DNA of 6,388 nt from a virus (taxonomy: Duplodnaviria > Heunggongvirae > Uroviricota > Caudoviricetes), in the IMG/VR virus record IMGVR_UViG_2706794694_000010; one strand, 5' to 3'. The position numbers and the translations under genes are program-made. How positions within the stretch are numbered: the stretch's first letter is position 1; every line of letters begins with the position of its first letter. Below, in pieces: positions 1-6,388 of the stretch. The notes under the pieces were generated by a model. The model had not been told where the DNA came from. It did not search any database and saw nothing but the letters and a program-made list of their open reading frames with translations.

Positions 1-107
1 CTCTCGTCTGGGGAATATCTCCCCGGCAGCCTTCAGGGAAAAATATCATCAGATGGCTGCTTAAAAAAAGAACAAATGGTAGTGTCCGCTATTGCCAGTA
101 CACCTCA
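1..107. repeat. Left copy of a perfect 107-bp inverted repeat; exact reverse complement of 6282-6388. Contains an ATG at 76 that opens a 21-codon truncated copy of the N-terminus of the ORF at 6083-6313.
   Basis: Reverse-complemented 6282-6388 by hand and compared base by base: identical for 107 bp, diverging at position 108. The repeat runs to the window edge, so its true length is unknown. Confidence 0.9.
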
Positions 108-293
108 GGATAGCGGTCATGTGATGCCGGTTTCCCGGTAACTCAGCACCGGTATCTGAGTCAACGTTTTCTCTACTGGGTCATTTCCGATACGCCCTGC
201 CTGCTGACAGGCTTTCATCACATCTGAAAATATAGCACCCTGACTGATACTGTAGTACCTAAGGTTCCAGAAACTGTGATGTATCCGGCACAG

Positions 294-314
294 AAAAGCC
301 CCTCCGGAGAGGGC
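294..314 (-). terminator. Possible weak intrinsic terminator on the minus strand (bulged GC-rich hairpin followed by UUUU)
   Basis: Minus strand reads GCCCTCTCCGGAGGGGC then TTTTCTG; the stem is imperfect, with a bulge. Confidence 0.3.
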
Positions 315-511
315 TGGAGAGTGGCGCTATGTGCCATTGCATGATGCCGGGTGCCTCCCGGTGAATTCAGTACCAGCACCTGAATCCGCGATTATCCCAT
401 ATACCTACTCGCTGATTGCCCCTCCGCACAGGGGGATTCACCATGCCAGTTTCTTTTAACAAACTCCCCGCAAAACAGACAACTGTCAACCGTCTGAATT
501 GTGAGACATTT

Positions 512-537
512 AAAAAAAAGGCCCGCAAAAGCGAGCC
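512..537 (-). terminator. Rho-independent terminator downstream of the tRNA cluster
   Basis: Minus strand reads GGCTCGC-TTTT-GCGGGCC (7-bp stem with one G-U pair) followed by eight T, starting 15 nt after the 3' end of the last tRNA. Confidence 0.6.
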
Positions 538-551
538 AGGGAAAATAAGTG

Positions 552-628
552 TGGCGCGTTGTACTGGATTCGAACCAGTGACCGATTGCTTAGAAGGCAA
601 TTGCTCTGTCCGGCTGAGCTAACAACGC
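552..628 (-). tRNA. tRNA-Arg, anticodon UCU (reads AGA)
   Basis: Minus strand GCGTTGTTAGCTCAGCCGGACAGAGCAATTGCCTTCTAAGCAATCGGTCACTGGTTCGAATCCAGTACAACGCGCCA. Hand-folded cloverleaf: 7-bp acceptor stem, D-arm GCTC/GAGC, anticodon stem ATTGC/GCAAT with loop CTTCTAA, T-arm ACTGG-TTCGAAT-CCAGT, discriminator G, encoded CCA. Confidence 0.85.
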
Positions 629-641
629 ATGATGCAGATAA

Positions 642-718
642 TGGACCGCCATCGGGGACTTGAACCCCGCGCAGCCAGCTTCGAAGGCTGGCGCTCTTTC
701 CTGATGAGCTAATGGCGG
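642..718 (-). tRNA. tRNA-Arg, anticodon UCG as read (reads CGA)
   Basis: Minus strand CCGCCATTAGCTCATCAGGAAAGAGCGCCAGCCTTCGAAGCTGGCTGCGCGGGGTTCAAGTCCCCGATGGCGGTCCA. Perfect 7-bp acceptor stem, anticodon stem CCAGC/GCTGG with loop CUUCGAA, T-arm CGGGG-TTCAAGT-CCCCG, encoded CCA. The discriminator is U, unusual for tRNA-Arg, so the amino-acid identity is less certain than the fold. Confidence 0.75.
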
Positions 719-725
719 TATGTGA

Positions 726-801
726 TGGTGGCCCTTGCTGGATTTGAACCAGCGACCTGGCGATTATGAGTCGCTCGCTCTCACCACTGAGCTAAAGGGC
801 C
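726..801 (-). tRNA. tRNA-Ile2-like, anticodon CAU (lysidine type, reads AUA); initiator/elongator Met not excluded
   Basis: Minus strand GGCCCTTTAGCTCAGTGGTGAGAGCGAGCGACTCATAATCGCCAGGTCGCTGGTTCAAATCCAGCAAGGGCCACCA. Closely resembles the E. coli ileX tRNA as I remember it (same acceptor, anticodon loop CTCATAA and T-arm). Good cloverleaf with encoded CCA. Confidence 0.85.
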
Positions 802-810
802 GGGAGCCGC

Positions 811-839
811 ATAATAACGACGCGTAATTAATTCTTCAA
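811..839 (-). promoter_or_regulatory. Candidate sigma70 promoter for the tRNA cluster
   Basis: Minus strand TTGAAG (-35), 17-bp spacer, TATTAT (-10), about 9 nt before the 5' end of tRNA-Ile; sits directly after the methyltransferase stop. Confidence 0.45.
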
Positions 840-841
840 TA

Positions 842-1900
842 TCATCCGTTCTGGCTGACTAAATCCTGTACTTCCCGAACCGTCTGCTCAAAACGTTCAG
901 TCTCCAGCTCAACGCCAATTGCACGACGCCCGAGCGCCAGTGCCGCTTTCACTGTCGAACCCAACCCCATGAAAAAATCTGCAATCAGGTCACCCGGACG
1001 ACTGCTAGCGCTGATTATCTGCTGCAGCATTTCTGCCGGTTTTTCGCACGGATGTTTCCCGGGATAGAACTGCACCGGTTTATGCGTCCACACATCGGTA
1101 TACGGCACCTGCACCGTCACGCCAAAATACCGCCGCAGATGTTTATATTCACTCAGCAGCTCCGCATACTGCCGGTTCAGTGAGGTATACGTATCCACCA
1201 GCTGGTGGTGGAGCTTTTCCAGTTCACCACGCCGATGCTTCTCTTCTGCCACCCGGGCAAACAGCGCCTGTAATTTCAGATAATCGCTTTCATTCGGCAA
1301 CTGCCACTGACCGGCACTGAACCAGTGCGACACCATGTTTTTCTTTCCTGTGGCATCTGCAATCTGTTTTGCCGTTATCCCCAGGGCAGCTCGCGCATCA
1401 CGAAAGTAAGAAATCAGCGGGGCCATCACATGCTGTTTCAGTGCACTGCCCTTCGCCGCATACCCGGCATCTTTCGGACGATACGGCCCCTGATAATGTT
1501 CCGCGAACAGAATGCGCTCTGTGGCGGGGAAATACGCCCGCAGGCTTTCCTTGTTGCATCCGTTCCAGCGTCCGGACGGCTTCGCCCAGATAATATGGTT
1601 CAGCACACTGAAGCGTTCACGCATCATGATTTCGATATCAGATGCCAGGCGATGACCACAGAACAGGTAAAGACTTCCGGCAGGTTTCAGCACCCGCCAG
1701 AACTGCGCCAGACACTGGTCCAGCCACTTCAGGTAATCATCGTCGCCCTTCCACTGGTTATCCCAGCCCTCAGGCTTCACTTTAAAGTACGGCGGGTCCG
1801 TGACTATCAGGTCAACAGAATTTTCGGGTAACGACCGGATAAATTCCAGGCAGTCGGCGTTGATTAACTCACAACTGGATATTTTTACAGTATTAAGCAT
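842..1900 (-). CDS. DNA methyltransferase, beta-class amino-methyltransferase (probably N6-adenine), no restriction enzyme partner in the window
   Basis: 352-aa ORF. N-terminal catalytic motif IV VTDPPYF, central HPCEKP resembling the HPTQKP motif of these enzymes, and C-terminal AdoMet motif I DFFMGLGSTVKAALALGRRAIGVE; this motif order is typical of the beta class. Confidence 0.85.
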   Translation of the reverse strand: MLNTVKISSCELINADCLEFIRSLPENSVDLIVTDPPYFKVKPEGWDNQWKGDDDYLKWLDQCLAQFWRVLKPAGSLYLFCGHRLASDIEIMMRERFSVLNHIIWAKPSGRWNGCNKESLRAYFPATERILFAEHYQGPYRPKDAGYAAKGSALKQHVMAPLISYFRDARAALGITAKQIADATGKKNMVSHWFSAGQWQLPNESDYLKLQALFARVAEEKHRRGELEKLHHQLVDTYTSLNRQYAELLSEYKHLRRYFGVTVQVPYTDVWTHKPVQFYPGKHPCEKPAEMLQQIISASSRPGDLIADFFMGLGSTVKAALALGRRAIGVELETERFEQTVREVQDLVSQNG

Positions 1901-1932
1901 GGATCATTAAGCCTGTCTCTGATAGGCTCATT

Positions 1933-1951
1933 CTGCTTTTGCGCAAAGCAG
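1933..1951. promoter_or_regulatory. Dyad-symmetry element CTGCTTT-N5-AAAGCAG upstream of the methyltransferase start; candidate operator
   Basis: 7-bp perfect arms around a 5-bp TGCGC core, 33 bp upstream of the methyltransferase ATG; overlaps a weak -35-like TTGCGC on the minus strand. Confidence 0.3.
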
Positions 1952-1993
1952 TGGGCCTGAGGTTTGCTTGTGAACCCAACGCATGAGCAGATG

Positions 1994-2022
1994 GCTGGTG
2001 GGTGCCCCTAACACCCACCAGC
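1994..2022. repeat. Perfect 11-bp inverted repeat GCTGGTGGGTG-N7-CACCCACCAGC; stable hairpin or protein-binding palindrome, function unknown
   Basis: Exact reverse-complement arms with a 7-nt spacer; no U-tract follows on either strand, so it is not a canonical terminator. Confidence 0.5.
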
Positions 2023-2036
2023 CGCCCATTTACCAC

Positions 2037-2064
2037 AAATAAAAAAGCCTTCACTGCGGAAGGC
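2037..2064 (-). terminator. Intrinsic terminator immediately after the small ORF
   Basis: Minus strand GCCTTC-CGCAGT-GAAGGC followed by TTTTTTATTT; the hairpin overlaps the ORF stop codon. Confidence 0.55.
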
Positions 2065-2248
2065 GTCTGTAACAACCGAACTGATAGTCTGCCAGACCCG
2101 CCATAACCAGCTGGGTCAGTATTAACTGGCAGCGTTCGCGTGAAAGGTAAGTATTCTGCGCTATCTCCCCGACTGTCGCCGGTTCGGTAACGCTTAATTC
2201 ATTAAACACCACTCTGGCGGTTTCTGTCATATCCTGCTGTTTTAGCAT
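2051..2248 (-). CDS. Small hypothetical protein (65 aa), possible winged-helix DNA-binding fold
   Basis: ORF with an AAGGA Shine-Dalgarno 7-8 nt upstream. The segment TVGEIAQNTYLSRERCQLILTQLVMAGLAD has a helix-turn-helix-like pattern, with a loose resemblance to PapI/FaeA-type small regulators; judged by eye only. Confidence 0.5.
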   Translation of the reverse strand: MLKQQDMTETARVVFNELSVTEPATVGEIAQNTYLSRERCQLILTQLVMAGLADYQFGCYRRLPQ

Positions 2249-2368
2249 GTCTTTTCCTTTTCCGGTTAACGTGACACACCAATAACTCTTGTCGAAAAAG
2301 CCAGCAAGCTGAAAGACAGGTATTCACCGCCACCAGCGCGTTTACTGTACTGACGCGATTTCAGTCAT

Positions 2369-2391
2369 AAAAAACCCGCTCGGCGGCGGGT
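2369..2391 (-). terminator. tR'-like intrinsic terminator downstream of the late promoter
   Basis: Minus strand CCCGC-CGCCGA-GCGGG followed by TTTTTT, about 35 nt downstream of the pause element. Confidence 0.65.
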
Positions 2392-2424
2392 TGTAGAAAC
2401 TCTTCTAACGTCAGGCATAAAACG

Positions 2425-2467
2425 CCCATCGTTATAACGAATTTACCACAGATTCCGGAAAAATCAA
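2425..2467 (-). promoter_or_regulatory. Lambda-type late promoter pR' with promoter-proximal sigma70 pause element (Q engagement region)
   Basis: Minus strand TTGATT (-35), 16-bp spacer, TAAATT (-10), 6 nt, then AACGATGGG. Lambda pR' has the same TAAATT, the same 6-nt spacing and the same AACGATGGG, as I recall it. It lies immediately downstream of the Q ORF. Confidence 0.7.
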
Positions 2468-2472
2468 CCTTG

Positions 2473-3294
2473 TTACCTAGTTACCTTTTTTAACTGCCGC
2501 TCAGCCCATGCTTCTTCAATATCAAACCGGGTCACCAGCGCATCATAAAATTTCTTAACTGTTTTTTCCCATGACGCGCGTGTTATCTGGTTTGTCACCT
2601 CGCATATAGCATTAAATGCCTCCGTTGATGGTAGTCTTTCATAGCCACGACCACCACAACGCTGGCAGTCTCTGATAACAGGCATACCACGTTTTACCGA
2701 CTCTTCACGATGAATGGCGACACCACGCCCACGGCAATCCTTACAGGCGGTGGAAACCTCACCCTTTCCGCCACACTCCGGACAGGCAACTTTTACCACC
2801 TCCCTGACTTTTTTCCATTCTTCCCAGTAAGACGGATACACACCTTTCGTACACTTTGCCCATACCGGCGGCTTACCATCCGGATACTGGATCTTGTTTG
2901 TAAAAACCTCGCTTTCAATAAATTTTTTTCCGTGACAGCAGGGGCACTGTTTTTTGCTCGCCGCGCTACGGGCATAATCTTCAAACGCATACGAAGCCAT
3001 AATACGCATCACTGCCGGTTTTATTTCTGCCGGGAGTTTTCTTAACGCCGCCACGCGATCACACCGACTGAGTGCATATTCTGTCAGCAATTCTGTTGCC
3101 CGCTCTCTGTCATTCATACTAATGCCCATTTTCCCAAGGAACGCAGAAACCCCCATCTCAGCCCGATTCTGTGTCATGCCCTGCGCGGCCATCACATCAG
3201 TGATACTCAGCGCATCTTTCGACGTTGAGGCCGATGCATCAGTCAGGCCGGGGGATTTTGGGGAGTAGTATTTCGGTAAATCTTCCAGTTTCAT
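2473..3294 (-). CDS. Q: Late-gene antitermination protein Q, lambda-Q family, with an expanded Cys-rich zinc-binding region
   Basis: 273-aa ORF. N-terminus MKLEDLPKYYSPKSP...TDVMAAQGM and C-terminus FYDALVTR...VTR parallel lambda Q; four CxxC pairs. The ATG overlaps the rusA stop (ATGA). Confidence 0.85.
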   Translation of the reverse strand: MKLEDLPKYYSPKSPGLTDASASTSKDALSITDVMAAQGMTQNRAEMGVSAFLGKMGISMNDRERATELLTEYALSRCDRVAALRKLPAEIKPAVMRIMASYAFEDYARSAASKKQCPCCHGKKFIESEVFTNKIQYPDGKPPVWAKCTKGVYPSYWEEWKKVREVVKVACPECGGKGEVSTACKDCRGRGVAIHREESVKRGMPVIRDCQRCGGRGYERLPSTEAFNAICEVTNQITRASWEKTVKKFYDALVTRFDIEEAWAERQLKKVTR

Positions 3295-3671
3295 TTTTTG
3301 ACCTGCCCTTCAAGCATTATGGGATAAATCTTCACCCCCAGACGTCCACCAGATACTGGCTGAGCACGAACGATATTGATTTCATCAAACTGCTCATCGT
3401 CCATTAGCAACCCCGCATGCGTCAGCGCATCCAGCGGCGCTTTCAGAATATTGTCCAGGTCACGGCGGCGCTTATCCGGTGGTTCTGCAATAATTTTTAT
3501 TGCCAACCTTCCGGACAGGCTTAATTTCAGCCGCTGCTGGCGAACAATAAGCGCCACTGCCCGGCGATAACGCTCCCCGGCTTTTGATACAAAATATGTG
3601 CTGCCACGACGACGCCAGTAAGTGTTCACCGTCGGCGGGTAAGGTAAAACAAATTCTATGCGCTCGGTCAT
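3291..3671 (-). CDS. rusA: Crossover junction endodeoxyribonuclease RusA (Holliday-junction resolvase)
   Basis: 126-aa ORF with LPYPPTVNTYW, PDKRRRDLDN, DALTHAGLLMDDEQF and GGRL motifs matching RusA. Its ATG directly abuts the upstream stop (TAAATG). Confidence 0.9.
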   Translation of the reverse strand: MTERIEFVLPYPPTVNTYWRRRGSTYFVSKAGERYRRAVALIVRQQRLKLSLSGRLAIKIIAEPPDKRRRDLDNILKAPLDALTHAGLLMDDEQFDEINIVRAQPVSGGRLGVKIYPIMLEGQVKK

Positions 3672-4730
3672 TTATGCTTTCCACTTCAGAACACCCGAAT
3701 TTCTCGCGTGCATTAAAAAACGAATCAGCAACAACAGCTGACTGCCGTGTTTCTCTTCAAAATCTTTTACTCCGGCATGTAGTTCGTTACGGCATTTACG
3801 GCATAACGGAATAACAAACAAATCATCAGCCTTTGTTCCCATCCCTCCCAGTCCATGACCAATGATGTGATGCGGATCATCTGCCTGATTGCCACACGTC
3901 ATGCATTTCTGCGTTTTTACCCAGCGCGTGTATACAGGCATCTCTTCCCGTTGTGATTTCTGGCGCTGGAGATACTGAGCCGGTGACTCCGGATCAACGG
4001 CAATGCTGACCACCGTCTTTTCCTGTGGTGGGTTCTGTTGCTGGTGGACGTGAGGCAGTAACGCAATATTTTTTGTGCGCTGCTTCAGTATGCTGGTGGC
4101 TGTCTGCTCTCCCGGTATGATGTCGCTTTCACTGTACACAGAGCGAATTTTTTCCGCACGCAACCCCAGCGAACGACGTAATACCGCTTCCGGTAGCGCG
4201 TCCGCCACCTGATTGCGGACCGCCCACCAGGATAATTCAGCCAGAGATAATTCACGCTCCTGCGTACCGCTTATTGCGTGACCGATGACGTCAATCATCC
4301 ATGCTGACAGGTTTTGATGAGCAAGTTGCTCGAGTGATTCGGATGTCTGGTCACGCAGCTGGTTGTCGCAGTGCCAGCACAACACCATTGCGCCGGTACC
4401 ATAACGGTGAATGACGGTTTCGCTGTGATGATAATCGCCGTGTGGCCACTGGCAGGATTTAATATGGCGCAACAGCCAGTCAGACAATGCACCAGCACCA
4501 CCAGCAGCACGAATCACCCGTGCGTTACTGAAAAACGGCAGCAATGTTTTGTCTTCCACCAGCGGCTGGCGAGCGGCAGGAACGACCCCGGACGGCAGAT
4601 TACGCATGCTTTTTGGTTCCGGCTCCACCAGTATTCTGCCGTTATGGAATGCTGACATTGATTCACGGCCTGGCTTAACGATAACCAGACCGAGTTCCGG
4701 TACCAGAACAGGTCGAAGTAATACCCGCAC
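3672..4730 (-). CDS. Prophage protein of the DUF968 / YdfU-like type with a C-terminal Cys/His HNH-like motif
   Basis: 352-aa ORF; C-terminal CMTCGN...HHIIGHGLGG...IPLCRKCRNELH. The GTG at 4730 has a GGAGG Shine-Dalgarno 4 nt upstream; an internal ATG at 4658 is an alternative start. Family assignment is from memory. Confidence 0.75.
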   Translation of the reverse strand: MRVLLRPVLVPELGLVIVKPGRESMSAFHNGRILVEPEPKSMRNLPSGVVPAARQPLVEDKTLLPFFSNARVIRAAGGAGALSDWLLRHIKSCQWPHGDYHHSETVIHRYGTGAMVLCWHCDNQLRDQTSESLEQLAHQNLSAWMIDVIGHAISGTQERELSLAELSWWAVRNQVADALPEAVLRRSLGLRAEKIRSVYSESDIIPGEQTATSILKQRTKNIALLPHVHQQQNPPQEKTVVSIAVDPESPAQYLQRQKSQREEMPVYTRWVKTQKCMTCGNQADDPHHIIGHGLGGMGTKADDLFVIPLCRKCRNELHAGVKDFEEKHGSQLLLLIRFLMHARNSGVLKWKA

Positions 4731-4805
4731 ATTACCTCCAGATCCGTTGCTGGAATGTGCGGGACGGACGCGTTGGCCGTTCGGAGTAAGGGAGCCTGAC
4801 GGAGA

Positions 4806-5087
4806 TTATCCAGTGACGGTAGTCGAGGCTAAGGGCTTTTTTAACCTCGCATCCGCGCCTGCGGTAACACTGAATGAGCCATTCGGCCTGTTCTTCAGTG
4901 CATGGGGGATGCTGGTACCAATCAGATTTAAATGCGTGAGAGCGCCGCCCGTGCCTGCTGGCAAAGACGGCTGAATTATCAGAATTGTGTAGTCTGGAAG
5001 GCAGTGGCTGACAATAGCGCCATTCTCAACGCGCACAGTATAGAGGCCATCTTCACTAAAAATTTCACGTAATTCTTCGATTTTCAT
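4806..5087 (-). CDS. Hypothetical small protein; reading frame uncertain (possible frameshift or pseudogene)
   Basis: ATG at 5087 with GGAAGG 9 nt upstream gives MKIEELREIFSEDGLYTVRVENGAIVSHCLPDYTILI... A second frame, open from 5025 to 4735 with no start codon, gives a protein-like sequence ending in a TAA inside the next gene's ribosome-binding site. Confidence 0.35.
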   Translation of the reverse strand: MKIEELREIFSEDGLYTVRVENGAIVSHCLPDYTILIIQPSLPAGTGGALTHLNLIGTSIPHALKNRPNGSFSVTAGADARLKKPLASTTVTG

Positions 5088-5169
5088 CAACAGAATCCTT
5101 CCAGATAAATAGCACTCCCCTGTTCGGGGTCCATCCCTCTTCTCCCTGCGCGCTACTTAAGTATTTTTG

Positions 5170-5199
5170 ATTCTATTCCGGCACCATCTAAAACTTCAA
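5170..5199 (-). promoter_or_regulatory. Candidate sigma70 promoter
   Basis: Minus strand TTGAAG (-35), 18-bp spacer, TAGAAT (-10), about 80 nt upstream of the ATG at 5087. Confidence 0.35.
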
Positions 5200-5207
5200 A
5201 CGCGTTG

Positions 5208-5238
5208 AAAATAAAAACAAAAACCCGCCGAAGCGGGT
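5208..5238 (-). terminator. Intrinsic terminator with UUCG tetraloop
   Basis: Minus strand ACCCGC-UUCG-GCGGGU followed by TTTTTGTTTTTATTTT. Confidence 0.6.
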
Positions 5239-5332
5239 TAAGTGTGGGTGCATTGAGGATGCCTGCCCCATCAGAGGTGGCGAGGGATTTCTCCCCCGCC
5301 TGGTCTCTTACTCCTCAGGTTCGTAAGCTGTG

Positions 5333-5418
5333 NNNNNNNNNNNNNNNNNNNNNNNNNNNNNNNNNNNNNNNNNNNNNNNNNNNNNNNNNNNNNNNNNNNN
5401 NNNNNNNNNNNNNNNNNN
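5333..5418. other. Run of 86 N: scaffold or assembly gap of unknown true length
   Basis: Literal n characters in the sequence. Confidence 0.99.
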
Positions 5419-5563
5419 TGAGACAGATAGCCTCAAGCACCCGCTGCAATTCTACTTAACTCTCCTTTTCCCGCAAACCGTTTTTATCCCCAGCGGCAAA
5501 TCGAATACACCACCAGCGCCACCGCCATCGCAATTCCTACCGTTGTTAATGCTTCAGGCCAGG

Positions 5564-5908
5564 TCATCGTAAAATATCCTCCACGCTTATCAGTCCGTTC
5601 CGCTCCAGATAACTCATCGCCTTATCCGGTAATTTGCAGTCTGGCTTCGCTTTCCTCAGTTGCCAGGTTAACTGCTTTACCAGCATGGTTAACTCATCGA
5701 CCAGACGCTGATATCCCACTGGTTTGTATTCATGCAATTTACCGGCTGGCTCTGCTGCCAGCGATACCAGTGCGATTTCCAGAACAGCAATATCCATCTT
5801 ATATGTGCGGATGATGTCATGGTCGATTGTGCCCGGTATGCACAGTCTCTGTGCTTCAATAGTCTCCTCTGCGTGAGCTATTAACTGCTCTCTGGTAAAA
5901 GTCGTCAT
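5564..5908 (-). CDS. Hypothetical protein (114 aa), paralogous at its N-terminal half to the adjacent 55-aa ORF
   Basis: ORF whose ATG overlaps the upstream stop (ATGA). Shares MTT(I/F)T(K/R)E and IAL(A/V)SL(E/A)AEP with the 55-aa ORF. Confidence 0.65.
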
Positions 5909-6072
5909 GCCGTAGCCCCTTCTTGATATTTTTCAAACCAGAACACAACCGGCTCTGCTTCCAGCGATGCCAGCGCAATCCGTGCCAGTTCCATTTGTTC
6001 ACCACGGGTAAGCCCGTTTTCAAGCGGGTTTTTAATGAACAATTCAATACGTTCTTTGGTAATAGTGGTCAT
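5905..6072 (-). CDS. Hypothetical small protein (55 aa), not in the supplied ORF track
   Basis: Hand translation gives [56 protein letters not shown] strong TAAGGAG Shine-Dalgarno overlaps the upstream gene's stop; its own stop overlaps the downstream ATG. Confidence 0.6.
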
Positions 6073-6082
6073 GTGTTACTCC

Positions 6083-6313
6083 TTAACCCGCAGTGCTTTC
6101 AACTGATGAGGGGAACAAAATCTTTTCATCAAACCCTGCATTCATATCATGAACAGCAACACACCAATCCATCGACGAACGATTATCAAGAGCCTCCATG
6201 ATTTCATCCATGCGGCGTAGGTCATACAGGTAAATGCTTTTATCGCCAATGGTGTAAAAGCCAATTTTTTTCGGTGATGGATGAGGTGTACTGGCAATAG
6301 CGGACACTACCAT
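6083..6313 (-). CDS. Hypothetical protein (76 aa from the ATG at 6313); may be the 3' part of a larger gene truncated at the window edge
   Basis: The ORF starts inside the terminal inverted repeat with no convincing Shine-Dalgarno. The same frame stays open upstream to position 6388 (the window edge), so it may be a 5'-partial CDS spanning 6083-6388. Confidence 0.55.
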   Translation of the reverse strand: MVVSAIASTPHPSPKKIGFYTIGDKSIYLYDLRRMDEIMEALDNRSSMDWCVAVHDMNAGFDEKILFPSSVESTAG

Positions 6314-6388
6314 TTGTTCTTTTTTTAAGCAGCCATCTGATGATATTTTTCCCTGAAGGCTGCCGGGGAGATATTCCCCAGACGAGAG
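6282..6388. repeat. Right copy of the perfect 107-bp inverted repeat (reverse complement of 1-107)
   Basis: Base-by-base reverse-complement identity with 1-107; extends to the window edge. Confidence 0.9.

Follow-up and report, generated by a model that had tools for sequence, protein, structure and literature searches.

IS600 (IS3 family, IS3 group) was first described in Shigella sonnei. In Shigella dysenteriae type 1, a defective Stx prophage is flanked by IS600, and in composite transposons of the Tn10/Tn5 type, two identical inverted IS copies flank a cargo. IS600 is one of the five ISs that have expanded in Shigella and was recently active in S. sonnei (Hawkey et al. 2020, PMC7373316). 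The IS-bounded contigs of short-read Shigella assemblies consist of a unique segment that ends in a multi-copy IS at both sides.

Here, we analyzed a DNA stretch of 6,388 nucleotides (the window), which an earlier inspection (the original prediction) had singled out for a perfect inverted repeat at its two ends. The window is almost certainly a scaffold of an S. sonnei prophage piece that lies between two complete, inverted IS600 copies, the scaffold ends having stopped inside IS600.

Identity of the terminal inverted repeat

Comparison of the window with itself confirmed that positions 1 to 107 are the exact reverse complement of positions 6282 to 6388 (100% complementary), with 6174 nt between the arms. 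By our own arithmetic, the expectation for a perfect 107-nt inverted pair arising by chance in 6.4 kb is ∼2e7/4^107, or ∼1e-57, and the runner-up inverted pair within the window reached 26 nt with 73% identity. The repeat ends abruptly at 107/108: 15 of the 16 positions from 108 to 123 are unpaired, and its inner edge is therefore sharp. The reading frames described at the arms were also found as predicted. An ATG at positions 76 to 78 (+ strand) opens 10 IS-derived codons on the left and meets a stop after 21 codons, and the same ATG on the right runs into the ORF at 6083 to 6313 (- strand; MVVSAIASTP/HPSPKK...).

Both arms were 100% identical to a RefSeq sequence annotated as "IS3-like element IS600 family transposase." In the left arm, the terminal 20 codons of the transposase gene orfB (positions 2 to 61, SRLGNISPAAFREKYHQMAA) are followed by the stop codon (positions 62 to 64) and then by the right terminal inverted repeat, whose final bases, ...CACCTCA, reach position 107; the orfB C terminus was recognized from the translation of the full element. 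Thus, although the remark that the window contains no recombinase gene is literally correct, each arm is the 3' tip of a transposase gene. The bulk of the two IS600 copies, designated A (left) and B (right), lies outside the window, which has only 107 bp of each.

We then considered the full IS600 copy in the closed S. sonnei chromosome CP151357.1 (L003), our reference for coordinates. Over 1264/1264 bp, it shares 99.76% identity with the IS600 annotated in E. coli E2865. Its 5'-TG...CA-3' termini are imperfect inverted repeats (IRL, TGAGGTAGCCTGAGTTTAACGGACAC; reverse complement of IRR, TGAGGTGTACTGGCAATAGCGGACAC). Translation revealed two overlapping frames, orfA (HTH) and orfB (DDE/rve), which are joined in the RefSeq coding sequence by a "programmed frameshift" (-1), and the 385-aa product matched the Pfam families HTH_Tnp_1, HTH_21, rve, and rve_3. 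The 107-bp inverted repeat is the tips of two oppositely oriented full copies of this IS3 family element.

Table 1. Features of the window and the basis for their assignment
Feature	Position	Strand	Basis
Right end of IS600 copy A	1-107	+	100% identical to annotated IS600; equals L003 16398-16504, where a complete 1264-bp IS600 terminates
Inner copy of the 3-bp target-site duplication of copy A, GGA (TCC on the other strand)	108-110		L003 ...GCTATCC/IS600/TCCTTCC...
Noncoding prophage stretch separating the IS600 insertion point from the tRNA cluster	111-551		Continuous with the SASA-esterase side in empty-site genomes
Phage tRNA cluster	552-801	-	ARAGORN and RefSeq annotation of L001
tRNA-Arg(TCT)	552-628	-	ARAGORN and RefSeq annotation of L001
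tRNA-Arg(TCG)	642-718	-	ARAGORN and RefSeq annotation of L001
tRNA, anticodon CAT (tRNA-Ile per RefSeq in the relative L001)	726-801	-	ARAGORN and RefSeq
DNA methyltransferase (N6_N4_Mtase), 352 aa	842-1900	-	ORF list; Pfam PF01555 on identical product; RefSeq "DNA-methyltransferase"
Late-gene antiterminator (Q-type), 273 aa	2473-3294	-	Pfam PF03589 Antiterm; RefSeq "antitermination protein"
RusA-family Holliday-junction resolvase, 126 aa	3291-3671	-	Pfam PF05866; RefSeq
DUF968 protein, 352 aa	3672-4730	-	Pfam PF06147; RefSeq
Assembly gap, 86 N, standing for 277 bp with the Sok antisense RNA and the larger part of the hok toxin gene	5333-5418		L003 mapping
Small prophage gene, 114 aa	5564-5908	-	ORF list; also called in closed genomes and L001
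Small prophage gene, 55 aa	5905-6072	-	ORF list; also called in closed genomes and L001
Chimeric ORF, 76 aa	6083-6313	-	Prophage gene fused to IS600 tip
GGA, target-site copy beside IS600 copy B; partner not across that IS	6279-6281		L003 TTT/IS600/TCC
Right end of IS600 copy B, oriented oppositely to copy A	6282-6388	-	Equals L003 9926-10032, end of a complete 1264-bp IS600 at 8769-10032

The locus in closed Shigella sonnei chromosomes

S. sonnei chromosomes were found by an exact-protein look-up of the chimeric 76-aa ORF, and the comparison of closed loci covered 20 loci from 19 different chromosome records (CP060117 and CP022457 are S. sonnei). In the assembly collection, the exact 76-aa product was recorded in 795 blocks, and the contig carrying the ORF was shorter than 10 kb in 637 of them. 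The window was 99.96 to 100% identical to the closed S. sonnei chromosomes and colinear with L003 9926-16504. In these chromosomes, the 6.2-kb prophage segment lies between two complete 1264-bp IS600 copies, which in L003 are 100% complementary across 1264 bp, with their right ends facing inward. The junction between the 76-aa ORF and IS600 was present in 20/20 closed loci and the tRNA-side junction in 14/20, the remaining six showing an empty site with a single TCC. Neither junction was found among 5426 complete E. coli genomes, which excludes the arrangement being common in E. coli. The left junction also had no match in a collection of species-representative genomes, presumably because Shigella is subsumed under E. 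coli in that taxonomy. A single copy in a closed reference had been named as evidence against a real duplication; closed chromosomes hold two IS600 copies, so the duplication is real. The proposed inverted duplication accordingly holds in substance, except that what is duplicated is a mobile element of 1264 bp, of which the window displays 107 bp from each copy.

The segment between the arms contains hok/sok, genes for a DUF968 protein, RusA, a Q-type antiterminator, and a DNA methyltransferase, and three tRNA genes. It is colinear with the neighboring prophage genes (SASA esterase and holin), as in E. coli relatives, and is not inverted with respect to its int/ompW and lysis-gene flanks. E. 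coli chromosomes match from position 107 on, and no feature is annotated across positions 111 to 551.

The original prediction had suspected a fold-back or chimeric assembly artifact. Under this reading, the two ends would be a single sequence joined on twice in error, with the N gap as a spurious join. The two arms do reach the window edges, are equal in length, and are accompanied by an N run; however, both junctions (107/108 and 6281/6282), the internal gene order, and the sequence across the gap were all recovered in closed chromosomes from the 19 different records. Since these chromosomes carry the same segment between two complete IS600 copies, the window is not a fold-back or a chimera, and we see practically no chance for such an artifact. 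The gap is unrelated to the repeat, contrary to the link that had been drawn between them. Its flanks map colinearly to L003 ...10895 and 11173..., and 277 bp are therefore missing. In L003, sok matched Rfam RF01794 at 10872-11047, and hok (PF01848) lies at 11042-11197. This 277-bp stretch is multi-copy: E. coli genomes contain it at a median of 2 places and at 9 at the most. The N run is not a 1:1 mask, as 86 N replace 277 bp.

We propose that the window is a short-read scaffold from S. sonnei carrying 6.2 kb from a decayed lambdoid prophage adjoining ompW and that each scaffold end enters IS600 by an equal distance of 107 bp. The assembler would have been unable to cross IS600 because this element is multi-copy; both ends running 107 bp into IS600 thus give a perfect terminal inverted repeat. 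As the contig stops inside a multi-copy repeat, the arm length is technical and not biological. A value of 107 is among the k values of SPAdes-based pipelines such as Unicycler, and the figure probably reflects the overlap length or k-mer of the assembler. Hence a caution: terminal inverted repeats of a short-read contig may be no more than the stubs that two copies of a multi-copy IS leave at its ends, the length of such stubs being set by the assembler and not by biology.

Origins of the two IS600 copies

IS600 generates 3-bp target-site duplications. Copy A has TCC on both sides, whereas copy B is flanked by TTT and TCC. The empty site corresponding to copy A, GCTATCCTTCC, with a single TCC, was read in L004 and L009, and the empty-site loci are L004, L009, L019, L021, L022, and L024. 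Copy A arose when IS600 transposed in the ordinary way, with duplication of TCC, into the spacer that separates the phage tRNA cluster from the SASA-esterase/holin genes. This tRNA-side copy is a simple, lineage-polymorphic insertion, carried by only some S. sonnei genomes, and might be of use as a lineage marker.

Copy B interrupts a prophage gene. In the chimeric ORF, positions 6083 to 6281 derive from an 87-aa prophage gene, of which they keep the 3' 65 codons, and the IS600 tip provides the first 10 codons (6284 to 6313) plus two bases of the 11th codon (6282 to 6283). The intact 87-aa protein starts MATLTKKEQAWLSELQDVLDRCPSPKK..., and the product encoded in the window starts MVVSAIASTPHPSPKK.... 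The second GGA of the copy B target lies at L003 6543-6545, inverted and at a distance of 3.5 kb, pointing to a later rearrangement; the target site common to both pieces was found at L014 7964-7966. Moreover, copy B adjoins an inverted 1-kb neighboring piece outside the window, and in L011, different outer flanks are joined to this IS600. Copy B sits at the joint of an old deletion-inversion, immediately beyond the window edge. The probable order of events is that copy B inserted into the 87-aa gene and later took part in a deletion-inversion that would have removed the prophage early region and flipped the adjoining 1-kb piece; this deletion-inversion after insertion would explain why copy B has no duplication. 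Two single-step routes were considered, replicative intramolecular transposition and homologous recombination of one IS copy with another; both predict IS600 at the integrase (reciprocal) joint, where it is absent. The recombination or inversion junction put forward in the original prediction thus stands for copy B, which has no target-site duplication and adjoins an inverted 1-kb piece, but not for the other arm. The chimeric 76-aa ORF is a handy signature of this older junction.

Inverted IS copies with their left ends outward around a cargo form the classic architecture of a composite transposon, which would imply that the 6.2 kb and both IS600 copies moved here as a single unit. Yet the outer flanks are TTT and TCC, so that the unit has no duplication, and on this ground we rejected such an origin. 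Copy A, furthermore, has its own TCC/TCC duplication, with a natural empty site in six loci that are otherwise the same, and the cargo is in its colinear prophage context. No IS600-cargo-IS600 unit was seen at an unrelated site with a 3-bp direct repeat. Joint arrival of the unit is, in our estimation, extremely unlikely.

Two perfect inverted repeats of 1.26 kb at a distance of 6.4 kb offer RecA a good substrate, and recombination between the two IS600 copies could flip the Q-methylase-tRNA block as a switch; the different outer flanks joined to the right-arm IS600 in L011 could be read in the same direction. Against this invertible segment, all 14 loci with both copies share one orientation relative to the DUF977 and SASA flanks (0/14 flipped), no invertase was found in or adjoining the segment, and neither a site-specific recombinase nor short recombination sites take part. 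A flip would bring no obvious regulatory gain, the prophage early region being lost. Unlike in Hin/Gin/Fim-type switches, the repeats are whole IS elements, and a single orientation was observed in 14 loci, at the consensus level. The suggestion of an invertible segment therefore found no support, and a switch of this kind is very unlikely. There is a slim chance that the antiterminator/methyltransferase/tRNA block occasionally flips, or moves as a composite transposon, in S. sonnei, too rarely to surface in consensus assemblies.

Comparison with known systems

Altogether, the locus is known biology, real but ordinary, and illustrates in a routine way how IS600 drives prophage decay and variation among strains in S. 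sonnei. The element itself shows no difference from known IS600; the peculiarities are that the window carries merely its last 107 bp, twice, and that one copy is without its duplication after a later rearrangement. Like other IS-bounded contigs of short-read Shigella assemblies, the window is a unique segment ending in a multi-copy IS, but here the two sides run into one and the same IS end, in opposite orientation, and the contig therefore resembles an element with terminal inverted repeats. The likeness to Tn10 and Tn5 is confined to the two identical inverted copies, since here the outer ends carry no duplication, the IS copies arrived independently, and the cargo remains in its native prophage context. 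The Stx prophage of S. dysenteriae type 1 is likewise a decayed lambdoid prophage cut up by IS600, with an IS600 copy downstream of Q and of the phage tRNAs, in the region that harbors stx in Stx phages. In contrast to that prophage, the one described here has no stx genes and differs in its host species and integration site (ompW).

The terminal repeat and its identity as IS600

The original prediction described a perfect inverted repeat at the edges of the window, and we confirmed that positions 1-107 are the exact reverse complement of 6282-6388. The inner edge of the repeat is sharp, with 15 of the 16 positions at 108-123 unpaired, and no inverted pair above 26 nt at 73% was detected elsewhere in the window. 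By our own arithmetic, the chance expectation of a perfect 107-nt pair is ∼1e-57, so the pair is not due to chance.

Translation of positions 2-61 (plus strand) gives SRLGNISPAAFREKYHQMAA, the next codon (62-64) is a stop, and the arm terminates in ...CACCTCA; on sequence grounds, it has the look of the C terminus of an IS3-family transposase plus the right terminal repeat. The arm was found in 2,887 of 5,426 complete E. coli genomes (median 2, up to 43 places), and most matches showed at least 99% identity and lay under features named "IS3-like element IS600 family transposase." The match in E. coli E2865 fell at the extreme end of an IS600 annotated as having a programmed frameshift. In the S. 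sonnei chromosome CP151357.1 (L003), the inverted repeat extends to 1,264 bp on each side with zero mismatches, and the element, which has TG...CA ends and the orfA and orfB frames, is 99.76% identical over its full length to annotated E. coli IS600. Since the repeat extends this far, each arm is the stub of a complete IS600 copy, and the right ends of the two copies (copy A at the left, copy B at the right) point inward. On every feature compared (sequence, termini, reading frames, domains, and 3-bp duplication), the arms agree with IS600. The right end of IS600 has an ATG that lies 32 bp from the tip and reads outward, so that each insertion generates a new fusion ORF; both reading frames had been described accurately from the sequence.

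Coordinates of the IS600 copies, fusion ORFs, and rearranged region
Feature	Sequence	Coordinates	Strand	Remarks
IS600 copy B	L003	8769-10032	+	complete, 1264 bp
IS600 copy A	L003	16398-17661	-	complete, 1264 bp
Left fusion ORF	window	76-141	+	21 codons
Right fusion ORF	window	6083-6313	-	76 codons; IS-derived and prophage codons
Rearranged region beyond right arm	L003	6192-8768		outside window; reference L014 7964-8991

The locus in closed S. sonnei chromosomes

E. coli matches to the window break at 107/108 and 6281/6282, where their prophage sequence runs on uninterrupted, and neither IS600 junction occurs in the 5,426 complete E. coli genomes searched. As the right ORF fuses IS-derived and prophage codons, its presence marks the right junction. 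Exact look-up of this 76-aa ORF returned 795 blocks of public assemblies, including 83 with contigs of >1 Mb. Among the corresponding records, CP060117 is S. sonnei UKMCC1015 and CP022457 is S. sonnei 2015C-3566 (organisms taken from papers). The window is colinear with L003 9926-16504 at 99.96 to 100% identity. For comparison, we used 20 loci on closed or near-closed chromosomes from 19 different records, one of which, HE616528 (L019), we take to be S. sonnei 53G. Because these loci show the same junctions (the left one in 14 of the 20) and the same internal order, the fold-back or chimeric assembly that had been suspected is excluded.

The N run (5333-5418, 86 N), also raised as a possible hint of an artefact, is unconnected with the terminal repeat, and its flanks map colinearly to L003 10895 and 11173; the 86 N therefore represent 277 bp. 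This hidden stretch includes the Sok antisense RNA (Rfam RF01794, L003 10872-11047) and most of the hok gene, such that the N run masks the central part of a hok/sok type I toxin-antitoxin locus. The window retains only the 3' end of hok (...AYEPEE*, about 5308-5332, minus strand) and, from about 5419, the 5' end of the hok mRNA region. As the 277-bp stretch is multicopy in E. coli (median 2, up to 9 places per genome), the gap was likely caused by this repeat.

Five IS, IS600 among them, have expanded in all Shigella, and Shigella reference chromosomes contain 229 to 348 IS insertions in total (PMC7373316). A short-read assembler would be unable to cross the multicopy IS600, and a unique graph edge would take an identical fixed overlap into the repeat at either end, which would make the two arms equal in length. 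We thus infer that assembler overlap set the 107-bp arm length. Consistent with assemblies breaking at IS600, the contig with the 76-aa ORF was <10 kb in 637 of the 795 blocks.

Distinct histories of the two IS600 copies

Copy B was present in 20/20 loci and has no target duplication (in L003, TTT on one side and TCC on the other), and we read its history against the intact prophage of E. coli M16807 (L014). The disrupted 87-aa gene has its first 22 codons, together with a second GGA target copy, inverted 3.5 kb away (L003 6543-6614), where they are joined to what is left of a truncated lambda-type integrase gene beside ompW (its last 351 bp). The piece L014 7964-8991 is inverted in L003, which also lacks the whole early region of L014 (genes for replication, immunity, and recombination) between the DUF977 gene (5' part) and int (5' part). 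On this comparison, copy B marks a deletion-inversion, and both the IS tip and the target copy fall exactly at its break points. Simple two-IS models predict IS600 at the integrase joint, yet no IS is there in L003; loss of an IS by excision, accompanied by deletion of adjoining DNA, would be a speculative explanation. In L021 (CP029794.1, 1726-2147; a 4.54-Mb "complete" chromosome), the DUF977 gene lies ∼420 bp from the 76-aa ORF versus ∼1.24 kb elsewhere, so copy B is internally deleted or collapsed in this assembly. The outer flank of copy B in L011 (CP045932.1, 8709-8768) differs from that of all other loci, which suggests a further IS600-mediated rearrangement.

Copy A has TCC on each side in L003, and the uninterrupted site GCTATCCTTCC, with a single TCC, was found in 6 of the 20 loci (L004, L009, L019, L021, L022, and L024). 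Copy A reached the spacer separating the phage tRNAs from the SASA-esterase/holin genes by plain transposition and is polymorphic among lineages, which fits the recent IS activity reported for S. sonnei (PMC7373316). A composite transposon, in which the cargo and both IS600 copies moved as a unit, was rejected: the two copies arrived independently, an outer duplication is absent, and the cargo sits in its native prophage context. Relative to both int/ompW and SASA/holin, which lie on opposite sides, the 6.2 kb retains its ancestral orientation. The invertible segment considered in the original prediction, which would flip between the IS600 copies, was unsupported, with a single orientation in 14/14 loci containing both copies and no invertase found among the window ORFs or in the closed-genome neighborhood. 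Rare RecA-mediated flipping is unlikely but could conceivably occur below what consensus assemblies show.

Relation to known prophages

The repeat is genuine, the concern about an artefact is answered, and the underlying biology is already known: this is a textbook example of a contig bounded by IS, from a Shigella genome rich in them, and the locus is an instance of IS-driven prophage decay. In the six loci with an empty copy A site, hok and the DUF968 gene are separated by a Rem-like ORF (PF27490), which is absent from the window and from most genomes with the tRNA-side IS600; in the alignment, L004 only, 250 extra bp were seen at window 4999/5000. The tRNA with a CAT anticodon (726-801, minus strand) was called Met by ARAGORN, its homologue is tRNA-Ile in RefSeq, and it is presumably lysidine modified. 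Stx-type lambdoid phages carry an Ile/Arg/Arg tRNA trio downstream of Q, a trait shared by the window, and copy A occupies what we take to be the position of stx in these phages, upstream of the SASA esterase gene.
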